Part shown: piece after piece, positions 37,272 to 41,127 of the stretch
How the letters are laid out: each line of letters starts with the position of its first letter
How positions within the stretch are numbered: the first letter of the stretch is position 1
Assembly: GCA_035480235.1 (NCBI GenBank)
Contig: DATIHX010000011.1
Location: 146 to 64,145, forward strand
DNA: 64,000 nt
From: Candidatus Saccharimonadales bacterium
GTDB lineage: Bacteria; Patescibacteriota; UBA1384; 2-12-FULL-50-11
Direction: 5' to 3'
Position numbers and translations under genes: made by a program
Notes under the pieces: model-generated
Told to the model about the DNA's origin: nothing
Database searches by the model: none
Seen by the model: the letters and a program-made list of their open reading frames with translations, nothing else

Positions 37272-39227
37272 ATGCCCACTGAATCCGGCCCACAATTCTT
37301 AAAAGAAAAGTACGACCTTCATAATGCGCCAGAGGTACAAACAGCGGCCGAGCGAACCAATCGCCGCAACGAACGAGCCGCCCAAGACGGTGAAGAGTTT
37401 GAAACTATCGGCCAAGATCCGGCCGCCCGGATTGAAAATTACCTCCGACGTTTTACAGAAATAACAAAGCGCACGGATCCGGAAAAACGCGAACGCGGCC
37501 TAGAAGCCGTCAAGCAACTAATTTTTGATAAGTTTGTCACTAAGTACGAAGACGTGCCAGAATCGTTTAAGCAATTGCAGGAAAGATTAATCCGAGAGCG
37601 CGGCGCGGGCGGCGACTGGGCCGGAGCAACAGACGAGCAAAGAGAACAAGTTATCCGGCAAAACGCCGAGGCAATGATTGACGATCAGCAGGCTTCGCTT
37701 GAACAATGGATCGACTACTTGGCCTCGGCCGATTCCAGCTATATGCCTGATTATTTAAAATACTGGACCGTTCGGAGCGTTCTCGGCCTCCAGGAATACG
37801 ATAAAGAAAATCATAAATTCCCTAACCGTTCCCGTGGCACCCTCAAGCAATTCCCCGACATTAACCAGGAGGCGCTCGTCTATGTGACCGAAGCTCTCGA
37901 AAAACATTTTAACGGCCAAAAGCCGGAGTACGAATATGACATTCAACCGGAAGATCGGACTCGATTTGAACAATTTATTGAGCACCAAAGCTTCGCCAAA
38001 ATGTATGCTTGGGCCGTTGAGCAAATTAACCCGATTTCCGAAGAACTTCTTCAAGTTACTGAAGGGCAATGGCATAAATTCGAGCAAGGCTCCGATTCAC
38101 ACGCCTTATCCGATTCAATCCGCGGCCGAAGTACCGGCTGGTGTACTGCTGGCCAAAACACTGCTAAAACGCAACTTGAAGCCGGGGACTTTTATATTTA
38201 TTACTCCAATAACGAGGAGGGCAGCCCAACTATCCCCCGCATCGCCATTCGGTTGGAAACGGGTAAGATCGCCGAAGTTCGGGGGGTAGCCTATAAACAA
38301 AACCTTGACCCTTATATGGGGCCGATACTAGAAGAAAAACTTAATGAATTTCCCGACAAGCAGCAGTATCTGAAAAAGGAACACGATATGGCCACGCTCA
38401 CCGCCCTCGAGCAGCGAGCCAAAGCAGGCGAAGAACTAACAAAAATTGATCTAGCCTTCCTTTACGAAATAGATAGCCAAATAGAAGGCTTTGGCTATCA
38501 GCGCGATCCCCGTATTAAAGAGTTGCGCGTCGGACGGAATATGGAAGCCGACATGTTAACCATCTTTGAATGCGAACCAGCCCAAATCGCCCGGAGTGTT
38601 GCAGAAATAAACGCCGAAACGAAAGCTTTTGTTGGCAAGTTGGAACCCGGCATTTTCACTAAAATTGCCGAACATCCAGCTATTGAACACCTGTACACCA
38701 ACTTCCCCGAAGGCAAAATCGCCCGCTCAGAACTAACGATCGGCGGTAAAACAGTTGACCAGCTCAAAGCCGAAATGGCAGAAAAACAAATTAATACTTC
38801 CAGTTGGGCCGAAGATATGCTGGCTAAAATGCCGGTCTTACCAAACCCTGAGCAAATCACCCTTATTCGTTTAAAAGTCGGCGATCTTGGCTTAACCGGC
38901 CAGCCAACGACCGATGAAATTTACGCCCGGGCCGCCGAATTGGGACTAGAACTCTGCCCAGCCGAAGTCGGTCCGCACCAACGCCTCAAAGACACCGAAC
39001 AGCCGTTAGGCGATTGGTATCGGGTGGCGATGAAACAAATTGCTGACCGGTTCGGCAGCCCGGACGTCTTCCGCCTGGAACGCAACGACCACGGCTTGTG
39101 GCTGAGCGACAGTATTGCCGAGCCCGACCGCAGGTGGGATCTGGACGATCAGTTTGTCTTCGGTCTTCGCAATGTTTCTCCGGACTCTCAGGCTCCTGAA
39201 CCCTTTATTCCCCAATTTGAGTTTTAG
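37272..39227 (+). CDS. DGR target protein (651 aa) with a C-terminal variable region
   Basis: ORF track. The VR occupies codons encoding ...IADRFGSPDVFRLERNDHGLWLSDSIAEPDRRWDLDDQFVFGLR, near the C-terminus as in C-type-lectin-fold DGR targets. Confidence 0.8.
   Translation: MPTESGPQFLKEKYDLHNAPEVQTAAERTNRRNERAAQDGEEFETIGQDPAARIENYLRRFTEITKRTDPEKRERGLEAVKQLIFDKFVTKYEDVPESFKQLQERLIRERGAGGDWAGATDEQREQVIRQNAEAMIDDQQASLEQWIDYLASADSSYMPDYLKYWTVRSVLGLQEYDKENHKFPNRSRGTLKQFPDINQEALVYVTEALEKHFNGQKPEYEYDIQPEDRTRFEQFIEHQSFAKMYAWAVEQINPISEELLQVTEGQWHKFEQGSDSHALSDSIRGRSTGWCTAGQNTAKTQLEAGDFYIYYSNNEEGSPTIPRIAIRLETGKIAEVRGVAYKQNLDPYMGPILEEKLNEFPDKQQYLKKEHDMATLTALEQRAKAGEELTKIDLAFLYEIDSQIEGFGYQRDPRIKELRVGRNMEADMLTIFECEPAQIARSVAEINAETKAFVGKLEPGIFTKIAEHPAIEHLYTNFPEGKIARSELTIGGKTVDQLKAEMAEKQINTSSWAEDMLAKMPVLPNPEQITLIRLKVGDLGLTGQPTTDEIYARAAELGLELCPAEVGPHQRLKDTEQPLGDWYRVAMKQIADRFGSPDVFRLERNDHGLWLSDSIAEPDRRWDLDDQFVFGLRNVSPDSQAPEPFIPQFEF
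39040..39170 (+). repeat. DGR variable repeat (VR)
   Basis: 131-nt ungapped alignment with 39581-39711. 17 mismatches, every one at an A in the TR copy. Confidence 0.9.
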
Positions 39228-39257
39228 ACACTTTGCTTCTTCGGCCCTTGGAAATTT

Positions 39258-39288
39258 TTTGCGGCGTAGCCGCTCGCCGCAAATTTTT
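39258..39288 (+). terminator. hairpin/terminator after the target gene
   Basis: TTTGCGGCG-TAGCCGCT-CGCCGCAAA followed by TTTTT. Confidence 0.55.
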
Positions 39289-39580
39289 GCTAGGCTTTAA
39301 GTAGATTGGTTGTGTCGGACGGTTAGTTTCAAACCTCACAGGGGGTGAAGCGGCTTTTCGAAACCCTTCTGGCAACTATTAATTGAGGGTGCCAACGGTT
39401 AGCTTTACTACTTTAGTTAGGCGGCTTTTGGCAGTGGTTTAATAATCTGTCTACATATGTAATAAGAGAAACTTGGTGTGGCGGGCTGGTGGATTTTGGA
39501 TCCCAAATTAGATACAGCCTGAGGCCTTTTACGAATTGGTAAATTGTCTGGGCAGTGGCCAAGATGGCGCGTCGCATAAT

Positions 39581-39711
39581 TAACTGACCGGAACGGCAAC
39601 CCGAACGTCTTCAACCTGGAACGCAACGACAACGGCTTGTGGCTGAACAACAATATTGCCAAGCCCGACAACAGGTGGAATCTGGACAATCAGTTTGTCT
39701 TCGGTCTTCGC
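39581..39711 (+). repeat. DGR template repeat (TR)
   Basis: Same orientation as the VR. AAC/AAT-rich in the VR reading frame. The 3' flank (CAGTCTTTC...) diverges from the VR flank (AATGTTTCT...) right after the shared GC-rich TTCGGTCTTCGC. Confidence 0.9.
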
Positions 39712-39735
39712 CAGTCTTTCTTTTCCGCAGCCGAC

Positions 39736-40140
39736 CTAAGGGTTGCGGTTTTTCTTGTCCGGATTATCTAGGTTTTTCCGCCAGCCACCGAGCATTTTAC
39801 CGACTTCTTCTAACTTGAGAGCAATTTCTTGATAATGATTTTGAGAAAGAATCCGGCCTTCCCAGGCCACCGCGATCAAAAATTTCAAGGCGTCCAGGCG
39901 CAAAATACAATCCGAAACTTTAGCTGGCTTTTCTTCTTTGGGGCTAAAATAGGCTAAGTAAATTTGCTCTAATAAGTCGAGGAGATTATTCTCGACTCGA
40001 GTTCCTAGCGTATACCGGCTATTCTTAGGAAGATGGGCCGAAATTTTCACCCAGAGCAGATAGCCCTCTTTGATCCGGTTGACGACCGACGCATTATCGA
40101 GAGAGAGAGAGAGAGAGAGAGAGTTGGACGGCTTCGGCAT
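39736..40140 (-). CDS. avd: four-helix-bundle (Avd-like / 23S rRNA IVS-protein family) accessory protein, encoded opposite to TR and RT
   Basis: ORF track, 134 aa. ...HLPKNSRYTLGTRVENNLLDLLEQIYLAYF...LDALKFLIAVAWEGRILSQNHYQEIALKLEEVGKMLGGWRKNL matches the pattern of this family. Residues 7-14 (SLSLSLSL) are encoded by the (GA)12 tract. Confidence 0.75.
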   Translation of the reverse strand: MPKPSNSLSLSLSLDNASVVNRIKEGYLLWVKISAHLPKNSRYTLGTRVENNLLDLLEQIYLAYFSPKEEKPAKVSDCILRLDALKFLIAVAWEGRILSQNHYQEIALKLEEVGKMLGGWRKNLDNPDKKNRNP

Positions 40141-41127
40141 AGTTTTAACGACATTATATCATTCCCGAACTTACTGGCCGCTTGGTCAGAGTTTTTGACC
40201 AATAAGCGGCGCAGAAAAGACCTCACGGCGTTTTCGCTTCATTTGACCGATAATCTTGTTGGGCTTCAACGTGACTTAGCGGGAAAAATTTATCGACACG
40301 GGACGTATCAGCCGTTTAAAATCAGCGACCCGAAACCGAGAGATATTCACAAAGCGATTGTTCGTGATCGCCTGGTTCATCACGCTATCTATCGAATATT
40401 GTACCCGTATTTTGACCGCCAGTTTATTTTTGATTCGTACTCTTGCCGGTTAAATAAAGGAACCCATCGAGCCATCAACCGTTTTCGAGAATTTGATTAC
40501 AAAGTTTCCCGTAATCAGACCCAAACCACTTGGGTTTTAAAGTGTGACATCCGGAAATTTTTTGCCAGCGTCGACCATAACGTTTTGAAAGAAGTTTTAG
40601 CCAAGCATATTGGCGACGAGGCAACGCTTTGGCTTTTGGCGGCAGTGATAGACAGTTTCTCAAACGACGGTAAGACCAACACGGGTTTGCCGCTGGGCAA
40701 TTTAACCAGCCAGCTTTTGGTTAACGTCTATATGAATGAATGCGACCAATTTGTTAAACGTGTTCTGAAGGTAAAGTATTACATCCGCTACGCTGATGAT
40801 TTTGTTGTCTTATCGGAGGACCGAGAGTATTTGGAAAAGGCTCTGGTGTCGATGGGCGATTTCTTAGTCGCAAAATTAAAACTCCAGCTTCATCCCGATA
40901 AAGTTTATATTAAAGCGCTGGCATCCGGCGTTGATTTCTTGGGCTGGGTTCACTTTTCTGACCACCGGGTGTTGCGCCAGACTACCAAACGGCGGATGTA
41001 CGGCCGGATGGCGGCTAGCCAAAAAGAGGAAACATATCAATCTTACCGCGGACTTTTAAGCCATGGTAATAGCTGGAAAACTAAACAACAATTGAGAAAT
41101 ATTTTTAATGAAGGACCCAGTGAATAA
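40033..41127 (+). CDS. DGR-type reverse transcriptase
   Basis: SFPNLLAAWSEF N-terminal block, KPRDIHKAIVRDRLVHHAI, SYSCRLNKGTHRA, LPLGNLTSQLLVNVYM and YIRYADDFVVL. The only canonical start upstream of the conserved N-terminus is ATG 40033, so the 5' 108 nt overlap avd antisense. Confidence 0.85.
   Translation: MGRNFHPEQIALFDPVDDRRIIERERERERVGRLRHSFNDIISFPNLLAAWSEFLTNKRRRKDLTAFSLHLTDNLVGLQRDLAGKIYRHGTYQPFKISDPKPRDIHKAIVRDRLVHHAIYRILYPYFDRQFIFDSYSCRLNKGTHRAINRFREFDYKVSRNQTQTTWVLKCDIRKFFASVDHNVLKEVLAKHIGDEATLWLLAAVIDSFSNDGKTNTGLPLGNLTSQLLVNVYMNECDQFVKRVLKVKYYIRYADDFVVLSEDREYLEKALVSMGDFLVAKLKLQLHPDKVYIKALASGVDFLGWVHFSDHRVLRQTTKRRMYGRMAASQKEETYQSYRGLLSHGNSWKTKQQLRNIFNEGPSE
40099..40123. repeat. 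(GA)12G dinucleotide microsatellite
   Basis: GAGAGAGAGAGAGAGAGAGAGAGAG counted directly. It reads SLSLSLSL in avd (minus strand) and ERERERER in the RT ORF (plus strand). Confidence 0.95.

Follow-up and report, generated by a model that had tools for sequence, protein, structure and literature searches.

The window, that is, the whole 64-kb stretch of DNA that was analysed, contains a complete DGR in the region 37272-41127, with the following features.

37272 to 39227, plus strand: DGR target gene, 651 aa, taken from the ORF list, with the VR near its 3' end
39043 to 39170, plus strand: variable repeat (VR), a 128-nt repeat shared with the TR
39258 to 39283, plus strand: GC-rich hairpin and T-run 3' of the target stop codon, 9-bp stem with 6 GC pairs
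39584 to 39711, plus strand: template repeat (TR), 128 nt, with 35 adenines of which 15 are replaced in the VR
39725 to 39748, plus strand: terminator-like hairpin and T-run directly 3' of the TR, 8-bp stem with 6 GC pairs
39736 to 40140, minus strand: avd, 134 aa, assigned by family matches and an AlphaFold model
40033 to 41127, plus strand: DGR reverse transcriptase (RT), 364 aa, assigned by RVT_1 and bRT matches
40033 to 40140, both strands: 108-nt stretch shared head-to-head by RT and avd, the codons of one exactly antisense to those of the other
40033 to 40035, plus strand: RT start codon ATG, antisense of the Avd His36 codon CAT
40070 to 40081, plus strand: alternative RT starts TTG 40070 and TTG 40079 in frame B, which would serve at GA-unit numbers of 2 modulo 3
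40099 to 40122, both strands: the proposed switch, a (GA)12 simple-sequence repeat with G 40123 directly after it
40138 to 40140, minus strand: avd start codon ATG, antisense of the RT His36 codon CAT

When the two 128-nt repeats were aligned, they differed at 15 positions, and the TR base was adenine at 15/15 of them. Besides this adenine-limited TR/VR pair, the region holds a DGR-type RT adjoining the TR, a 3' VR with a GC-rich hairpin, and Avd. The VR stops 57 nt short of the target ORF's stop codon, and the hairpin at 39258-39283 is possibly a DGR hairpin or a terminator. Searches of Pfam and NCBIfam gave no family assignment for the 651-aa target protein, and an Rfam search of positions 38900-40400 gave no meaningful match. 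The stem of the second hairpin (39725-39748), which overlaps the avd stop codon, is followed by TTTTTCTT. Since this terminator-like hairpin and its T-run lie directly 3' of the TR, read-through from the TR into avd is unnecessary, and the antisense passage of the TR transcript through avd, regarded as obligatory in the original prediction, is not required. That prediction had also placed avd inverted between TR and RT, with VR, TR and RT all on the plus strand, and both coordinates and strands were found to be as described. An avd gene situated between TR and RT on the strand opposite to both is the layout of architecture B3.

The minus-strand ORF had been taken to be Avd-like, and family searches identified it as an Avd homologue. 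It scored 57.2 bits against Pfam bAvd (PF22296; cut-off 40, E 2.8e-15), and residues 18-122 matched positions 2-104 of the NCBIfam model DivGenRetAVD with an E of 1.8e-19 and a score of 70 bits, which is below the equivalog cut-off of 80. In the AlphaFold model, pLDDT is <50 at residues 1-15 and helices span residues 19-34, 39-64, 71-94 and 100-125. Avd is thereby predicted to consist of a disordered leader (residues 1-17), including the tract-encoded (SL)4, and a four-helix bundle (residues 19-125). Its homologues have in common the pattern M-x(4-8)-(SL)n-D-x-A-S, and a search of solved structures with the Avd profile returned a designed coiled coil as the sole match. The RT matched RVT_1 at 79 bits, and its best solved relative was the Bordetella phage bRT 8ub7 (E 4e-42 over residues 33-342). 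The alignment begins at RT residue 33, corresponding to bRT residue 4, and RT residues 1-32 form a leader which bRT lacks and which contains the tract-encoded (ER)4. RT homologues have in common MRxNxxPNQISLFD...(ER)n.

No ATG, GTG or TTG other than ATG 40033 precedes the conserved N-terminus in the RT frame, and the only canonical start of Avd is ATG 40140. A single canonical RT start at this position and an overlap of about 108 nt with avd had been anticipated, and the ORF check gave the same start and an overlap of 40033-40140. The arrangement is such that the start codon of each gene is the antisense of a conserved His codon in the other. In the public annotation of the source contig, the 364-aa RT is shortened to 310 or 294 aa and the 134-aa Avd to 104 aa. 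Because gene callers disallow 5'-5' overlaps, public gene calls at such loci are systematically wrong. The appearance of truncated genes is also produced by out-of-frame alleles.

The (GA)12 tract is the sole non-A/T simple repeat within the 64-kb window, and it is a perfect repeat inside both ORFs. The (GA)12G stretch at 40099-40123 is translated, as originally described, into SLSLSLSL at codons 7-14 of Avd and into ERERERER in the RT frame, where it occupies codons 23-30; one repeat translated from both strands into two proteins, as the coding sequences of the GA lineage suggest, would be unusual coding. Alleles with n GA units were simulated in silico, with the following outcome.

n = 9, 12 or 15 (0 modulo 3): RT from ATG 40033, Avd from ATG 40140, both ON
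n = 10 or 13 (1 modulo 3): start codon for neither RT nor Avd, both OFF
n = 11 or 14 (2 modulo 3): RT from TTG 40070 or TTG 40079, Avd from an alternative ATG, alternative starts

The window allele (n = 12) falls in the both-ON phase in this simulation, and the allele of a sister assembly (n = 13) falls in the both-OFF phase, with in-frame ATG, GTG and TTG absent for both the RT body and the Avd body. The expectation that a change of one unit would shift the frame of avd and disconnect the RT body was thus reproduced. TTG 40070 and TTG 40079 lie in the +1 frame, and the RT body joins them after the loss of one GA, in agreement with the role foreseen for TTG 40079; n = 2 modulo 3 is probably a second, weaker ON state. 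As the peptides encoded by the tract belong to leaders that neither fold includes, gains or losses that keep the frame should do no harm, and out-of-frame changes would sever each gene body from its own start codon. Translation in the cell would be expected to follow these frames, and expression of both genes would then vary with tract length.

The original prediction regarded a dinucleotide repeat of this length as a slipped-strand contingency locus, and the length of the tract is indeed not invariant. When the window was compared with CAZWSM010000002.1 (GCA_964636455.1), another assembly of the same organism, 15.8 kb aligned without a mismatch, and the only gap corresponded to an extra GA unit in that assembly, whose allele is (GA)13. 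The Logan assembly of SRR9179560 likewise carries (GA)13. The NCBI contig and the Logan contig with (GA)13 may share one source sample. Exact matches to FolD and ThrS were found only in the same NCBI contig and in a short Logan contig that ends before the DGR. Counts of GA units in related assemblies, which had been suggested as a check, differed within two species. Among ten contigs from different samples with an identical RT (P0295), the tract had 9, 10, 12 (four contigs), 13 (three contigs) and 15 units, with a flank divergence of 0.16%. In the second species, ten contigs encoding P0300, with flanks 99.8-100% identical, had 12 units in six cases and 13 in three, and one carried a (GA)4G7 variant. 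In two further species sets, P0086 and P0045 (4-5 samples), no tract variation was seen, and the tracts were (GA)6 and (GA)12GG(GA)6. These lengths are those of assembly consensus sequences, and their differences could in principle reflect subpopulations or errors of repeat calling; stutter alone would not readily account for samples that range from 9 to 15 units. Clusters of RTs at 90% identity with long perfect tracts contained a mixture of frame-A N-termini (MRNN..QISLFD..ERER) and frame-B N-termini (MIL.RIEA.SRERER) with differing ER counts, and those with short or interrupted tracts (KRKR, ERERV, EREGV) had uniform N-termini.

To survey relatives, as had also been proposed for the 5' region of avd and RT, we sampled 80 of more than 588 GTDB species-representative relatives and 80 of more than 500 JGI metagenome relatives from an RT alignment search. 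Nearly all retrieved loci were labelled Patescibacteria or unclassified, and a few record titles carried other phylum names. The inverted avd abuts the RT in all 138 sampled relatives with sufficient upstream DNA. At the junction of the two genes, a simple repeat was present in 127 of 134 independent sampled loci (95%), and its unit was not constant. Poly-G of 6-14 nt was found in 93 of the 134 loci and (GA)4.5-21.5 in 31, while (GT)12, (CTGG)10 and (TGATTGC)11 occurred in one locus each and no repeat was found in seven. Across these loci (715 kb), 120 threshold-passing repeats fell in the junction of about 60 nt, compared with 5 non-A/T repeats elsewhere. Thus, presence of a repeat is conserved among the homologous loci, and neither its length nor its unit is. 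As different units occupy one homologous site, the selected property seems to be mutability and not the repeat sequence.

Phases of the loci were derived from DNA alone. Truncated gene calls had been considered as a proxy for OFF alleles and were dropped, as gene callers truncate phase-0 loci too. All seven repeat-free loci were in phase 0, the both-ON phase, with none in phases 1 and 2, which marks phase 0 as the configuration that selection keeps where the frame is fixed. Loci with a repeat were spread over all phases with gene bodies and start codons intact: loci with GA tracts of at least 13 nt were distributed over phases 0, 1 and 2 as 12, 9 and 7, and poly-G loci as 15, 40 and 30. In the poly-G loci the in-frame phase is therefore the rarest, an outcome not foreseen by a simple ON/OFF model. 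In this lineage the tract belongs to the Avd leader and precedes the RT ATG by 1-30 nt (mode 13), and it is mostly 9-11 nt long.

Codon usage around the tract was informative as to whether the upstream start codons are used. Avd His36, whose codon is antisense to the RT start, is CAT in 23/23 GA-group loci, compared with 59% CAT among background His codons; RT His36 is CAT in 21/21 GA-group His codons and in 29/30 of the poly-G group. TTA, CTA and TCA codons in avd are antisense stops in the RT leader frame; along the 19-codon part of avd that lies opposite the RT leader, they made up 0/118 Leu/Ser codons, against 126/535 in the remainder of avd (Fisher p = 1e-12, a value that is optimistic in the same way as the others in the codon and phase tests, as the loci share ancestry). 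In the poly-G group, where the RT ATG lies 3' of the tract, the three codons were not depleted (p = 0.68). Ahead of the tract, an ATG and an open frame A were found in 31/31 independent GA loci, irrespective of the phase that each is in now. Most GA loci offer a TTG in frame B at about 30 nt before the tract, and in nearly all of them frame C is closed. Many homologues use the frame of this TTG. Avd Ile23 is ATC in 24/25 Ile codons (background 26%). This codon yields the frame-B TTG and also encodes a frame-A Asp, and the bias could be explained by the Asp codon instead of the TTG. Taken together, synonymous codon choice demonstrates selection on the start codons either side of the tract and, by the same sequence-based reasoning, the tract of the (GA)n lineage is inside translated sequence on both strands. 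An initiation of the RT downstream of the tract, which would have spoken against the original prediction, is not supported, as the upstream ATG is under selection at synonymous sites.

Based on these observations, we consider it likely that (GA)12 is a hypermutable repeat which gives random, heritable ON/OFF switching of DGR mutagenesis. Slipped-strand mispairing during replication would add or remove GA units in steps of 2 nt, and, with the start codons fixed, these changes would carry the bodies of both genes through three phases. Avd and RT would both be made by the in-phase allele only, or perhaps by the alternative-start allele as well. In the Bordetella phage model, mutagenic retrohoming needs both Avd and RT; because of this requirement, DGR activity would become a stochastic ON/OFF trait, and hypermutation of the 651-aa target protein would be stochastically and heritably ON or OFF within a population. 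The comparative data thus favour the originally suggested switch of the mutagenesis machinery, with its effect on expression expected from the reading frames. Switching would presumably be frequent and reversible within a lineage, and may be adaptive. With somewhat more reserve, we favour the broader view that phase variation affects the majority of DGRs in the Patescibacteria (CPR) clade, by way of a hypermutable repeat that is maintained at the head-to-head junction and whose unit type has changed repeatedly. In the (GA)n lineage, the repeat would be translated on both strands as a piece of each protein and would serve as a heritable switch with three states.

Four other explanations were weighed, each of which is less consistent with the data than the switch. 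The tract might serve recoding, in which transcriptional slippage or ribosomal frameshifting lets every allele yield some Avd and RT at low expression, as in a rheostat. Consensus genomes in all three phases (12:9:7 for GA, 15:40:30 for poly-G) are easier to understand if alleles are leaky, and, as RNA polymerase slippage occurs at homopolymers of at least 9 nt, most poly-G tracts, at 9-11 nt, are in range. However, the frame evidently matters, with 7/7 repeat-free loci in phase 0; we know of no established mechanism of transcriptional slippage on GA dinucleotides; and the length polymorphism is seen directly at the DNA level. We regard recoding as an improbable sole explanation. It is compatible with the switch, and both can coexist. 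The tract might instead act in cis as a nucleic-acid element, such as H-DNA, a G-quadruplex, an R-loop, part of a promoter or leader, or a site used by the RT, with its length variation incidental. All five repeat types have G > C on the RT-sense strand, the poly-G tract lies in the RT leader at the short distance from the RT ATG given above, and the promoters of the divergent genes must lie in this region. Against this, five unrelated units occupy one site, two of which, (CTGG)n and (TGATTGC)n, have none of the structure-forming properties of (GA)n; codon selection in the GA group shows that the tract is part of what is translated from either strand; a -10 box is not conserved after the tract, TANNNT being found in 27/90 poly-G loci; and the region is without an Rfam match. 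A cis-acting role thus appears rather unlikely. The more specific idea of a promoter-spacer switch was rejected, as TANNNT was present in only those 27/90 loci and at no conserved position; in the GA group, each strand has the tract between a start codon under selection and the body of its gene, which is not the place of a promoter spacer. A consensus promoter scan of the window gave chance-level matches only. A priming-related role of the polypurine tract, put forward as speculation in the original prediction, is unsupported, because relatives carry (GT)n, (CTGG)n and heptamer repeats at the same site.

It could also be argued that the repeat is neutral, slippage-prone filler in a disordered linker and that out-of-frame alleles belong to decaying DGRs, given that the leaders are disordered and outside the folds and that many loci are out of frame. 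Such filler would hardly be expected at one site in 95% of 134 loci whose RTs are only 55-65% identical, nor would at least five repeat types apparently have arisen there when such repeats are nearly absent elsewhere. Moreover, out-of-frame loci retain both ATGs, open upstream frames and intact gene bodies, and the (GA)13 allele is otherwise identical to the ON allele across 15.8 kb, making neutral decay very unlikely. Finally, short-read data are error-prone at repeats, and the (GA)13 contigs from NCBI and Logan may come from one sample, which would suit an assembly or sequencing artefact. An artefact is nevertheless scarcely credible in view of consensus lengths that lie as much as 6 units apart in samples whose flanks are identical, and of the same pattern in hundreds of independent assemblies made with different pipelines.

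If the switch is real, a stochastic mutator switch would be placed atop targeted hypermutation, and it would be the first genetic regulator of DGR activity to be described; to our knowledge, little has been described of how DGR mutagenesis is controlled. Constant rewriting of a ligand-binding protein should be costly. With switching, a small fraction of the population would diversify the protein and the remainder would keep a working variant, a form of bet-hedging for organisms whose genomes are very small and encode few regulators.

The gene order at the locus has clear precedents. Inverted avd (architecture B3) makes up 90% of the CPR DGR set (Wu et al. 2018, PMC5758913), and the B3 CPR DGRs and DGR clade 2 (Roux et al. 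2021, PMC8144416) share with the present locus the order target/VR, TR, opposite-strand avd and RT, as well as a host range in Patescibacteria. Neither of these two papers mentions a repeat, a homopolymer, a frameshift switch or a 5'-5' overlap. Full-text searches for DGRs together with phase variation, simple repeats, homopolymers or microsatellites, in a literature that did not extend to Paul et al. 2017, found nothing relevant. As such, inverted avd is already known, and what is new here is the repeat tract with its variable length. Simple-repeat phase variation is likewise known; for its link to DGRs no report was found in the literature searched, in accordance with the original prediction, and on that literature the link is new.

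The DGR of Bordetella phage BPP-1 (mtd-avd-TR-brt) resembles the present one in its homologous RT, its four-helix-bundle Avd and its adenine-specific TR-to-VR mutagenesis. In BPP-1, however, avd is co-oriented and upstream of the TR, whereas here it is inverted and between TR and RT, and bRT is without the 32-residue leader found on the RT here. We know of no repeat tract or phase switch in BPP-1. The closest parallels to the tract itself are intragenic contingency loci such as Neisseria opa (CTCTT)n, the Haemophilus lic/mod tetranucleotides and the poly-G genes of Campylobacter. These loci likewise have a perfect repeat near the 5' end of an ORF which is length polymorphic between near-identical strains, and in their relatives the presence of the repeat is conserved and its length is not, as here. 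Their ON/OFF control is by frameshift, and here the corresponding frames were obtained in silico. In contrast with those loci, one tract is common to two divergent overlapping ORFs on both strands, and with a dinucleotide unit there are three phases, one of which has an additional start codon. The function proposed to be controlled is a mutagenesis machine and not a surface structure, and the hosts are environmental ultra-small bacteria instead of pathogens. In the hifA/hifB (TA)n system of Haemophilus influenzae, one dinucleotide repeat between two divergent genes controls both, as is proposed here. That repeat is the -10/-35 spacer of overlapping promoters and acts by transcriptional control, whereas the GA-group tract is inside both coding sequences and its predicted control is of the translational frame. 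Repeat switching of mutL/mutS and phasevarions are similar to the proposed switch in that a hypermutable repeat governs a higher-order generator of variation (second-order evolvability). While those systems affect genome-wide mutation rate or methylation, the tract described here would gate adenine-specific hypermutation of a single protein.

In the head-to-head avd/RT overlap of the window (40033-40140), the ATG of each gene lies exactly antisense to codon 36 of the partner gene, a conserved His codon (CAT), and the overlap is therefore symmetric, with 36 codons per gene. The public records covering these genes (P0001, P0002 and P0121; window 39736-41127) hold shortened versions, in which RT is 310 or 294 aa long and Avd is 104 aa long with a GTG start, and the two overlapping genes were called together at full length in none of the loci examined. 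Because gene callers shorten both genes, database N-termini are unreliable for the DGR clade of the window. In the RT cluster of the protein record P0079, the close relatives P0271, P0272 and P0277 have the ER repeat fused straight to sequence 20-40 residues deeper in RT, as in the N-terminus ...RERERERSLENLLV. These N-termini represent either tract-seeded deletions or assembly collapses.

The junction of one related locus, L184 (ERZ27254846 k141_3243129, at about 900-950), carries (GA)4G7 in place of (GA)12 between flanks that are 99.8% identical, and mixed GA/G tracts were also present in L016, L059 and L082. This looks like one repeat type caught turning into another. The poly-G subgroup, taken from the related loci L010-L165, has a junction repeat of G7-14, and its Avd shares only 30-40% identity with that of the window. 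Its phases, namely the frames of the gene bodies relative to the start codons, were distributed as 15:40:30, the rarest being the phase that gives an in-frame Avd ATG, and the median distance from the tract to the downstream RT ATG is 13 nt.

Three further plus-strand features of the window lie close to the DGR genes:

39258-39283, plus strand: GC-rich hairpin with T-run, 31 nt past the target gene stop codon
39725-39748, plus strand: GC-rich hairpin with T-run, immediately 3' of TR and overlapping the avd stop codon
41108-41497 region, plus strand: 89-aa ORF with coiled-coil-like repeats (DVGDLKTDVVGLKTDVGDLKSDVFGLKTD), overlapping the RT 3' end

Since the hairpin and T-run at 39725-39748 directly follow TR, the sequence suggests that the TR transcript may end ahead of avd, without read-through to RT. 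The two hairpins resemble each other. The 89-aa ORF stops at TAG 41375, and beyond it another 40 codons, alike in character, are open in the same frame, to 41497; an in-frame stop, a pseudogene or read-through could each account for this arrangement.

Outside the junction, the related loci (715 kb in all) contained no non-A/T simple repeats other than the following, in the coordinates of each locus:

L058, 2706-2733
L133, 4066-4093 and 86-93
L156, 3638-3647
L163, 4338-4345

These comprise (ACTAGCT)4, (CAATTTT)4 and G8-G10 runs located a few kb away from the junction of the DGR, and may be additional contingency loci of Patescibacteria genomes.
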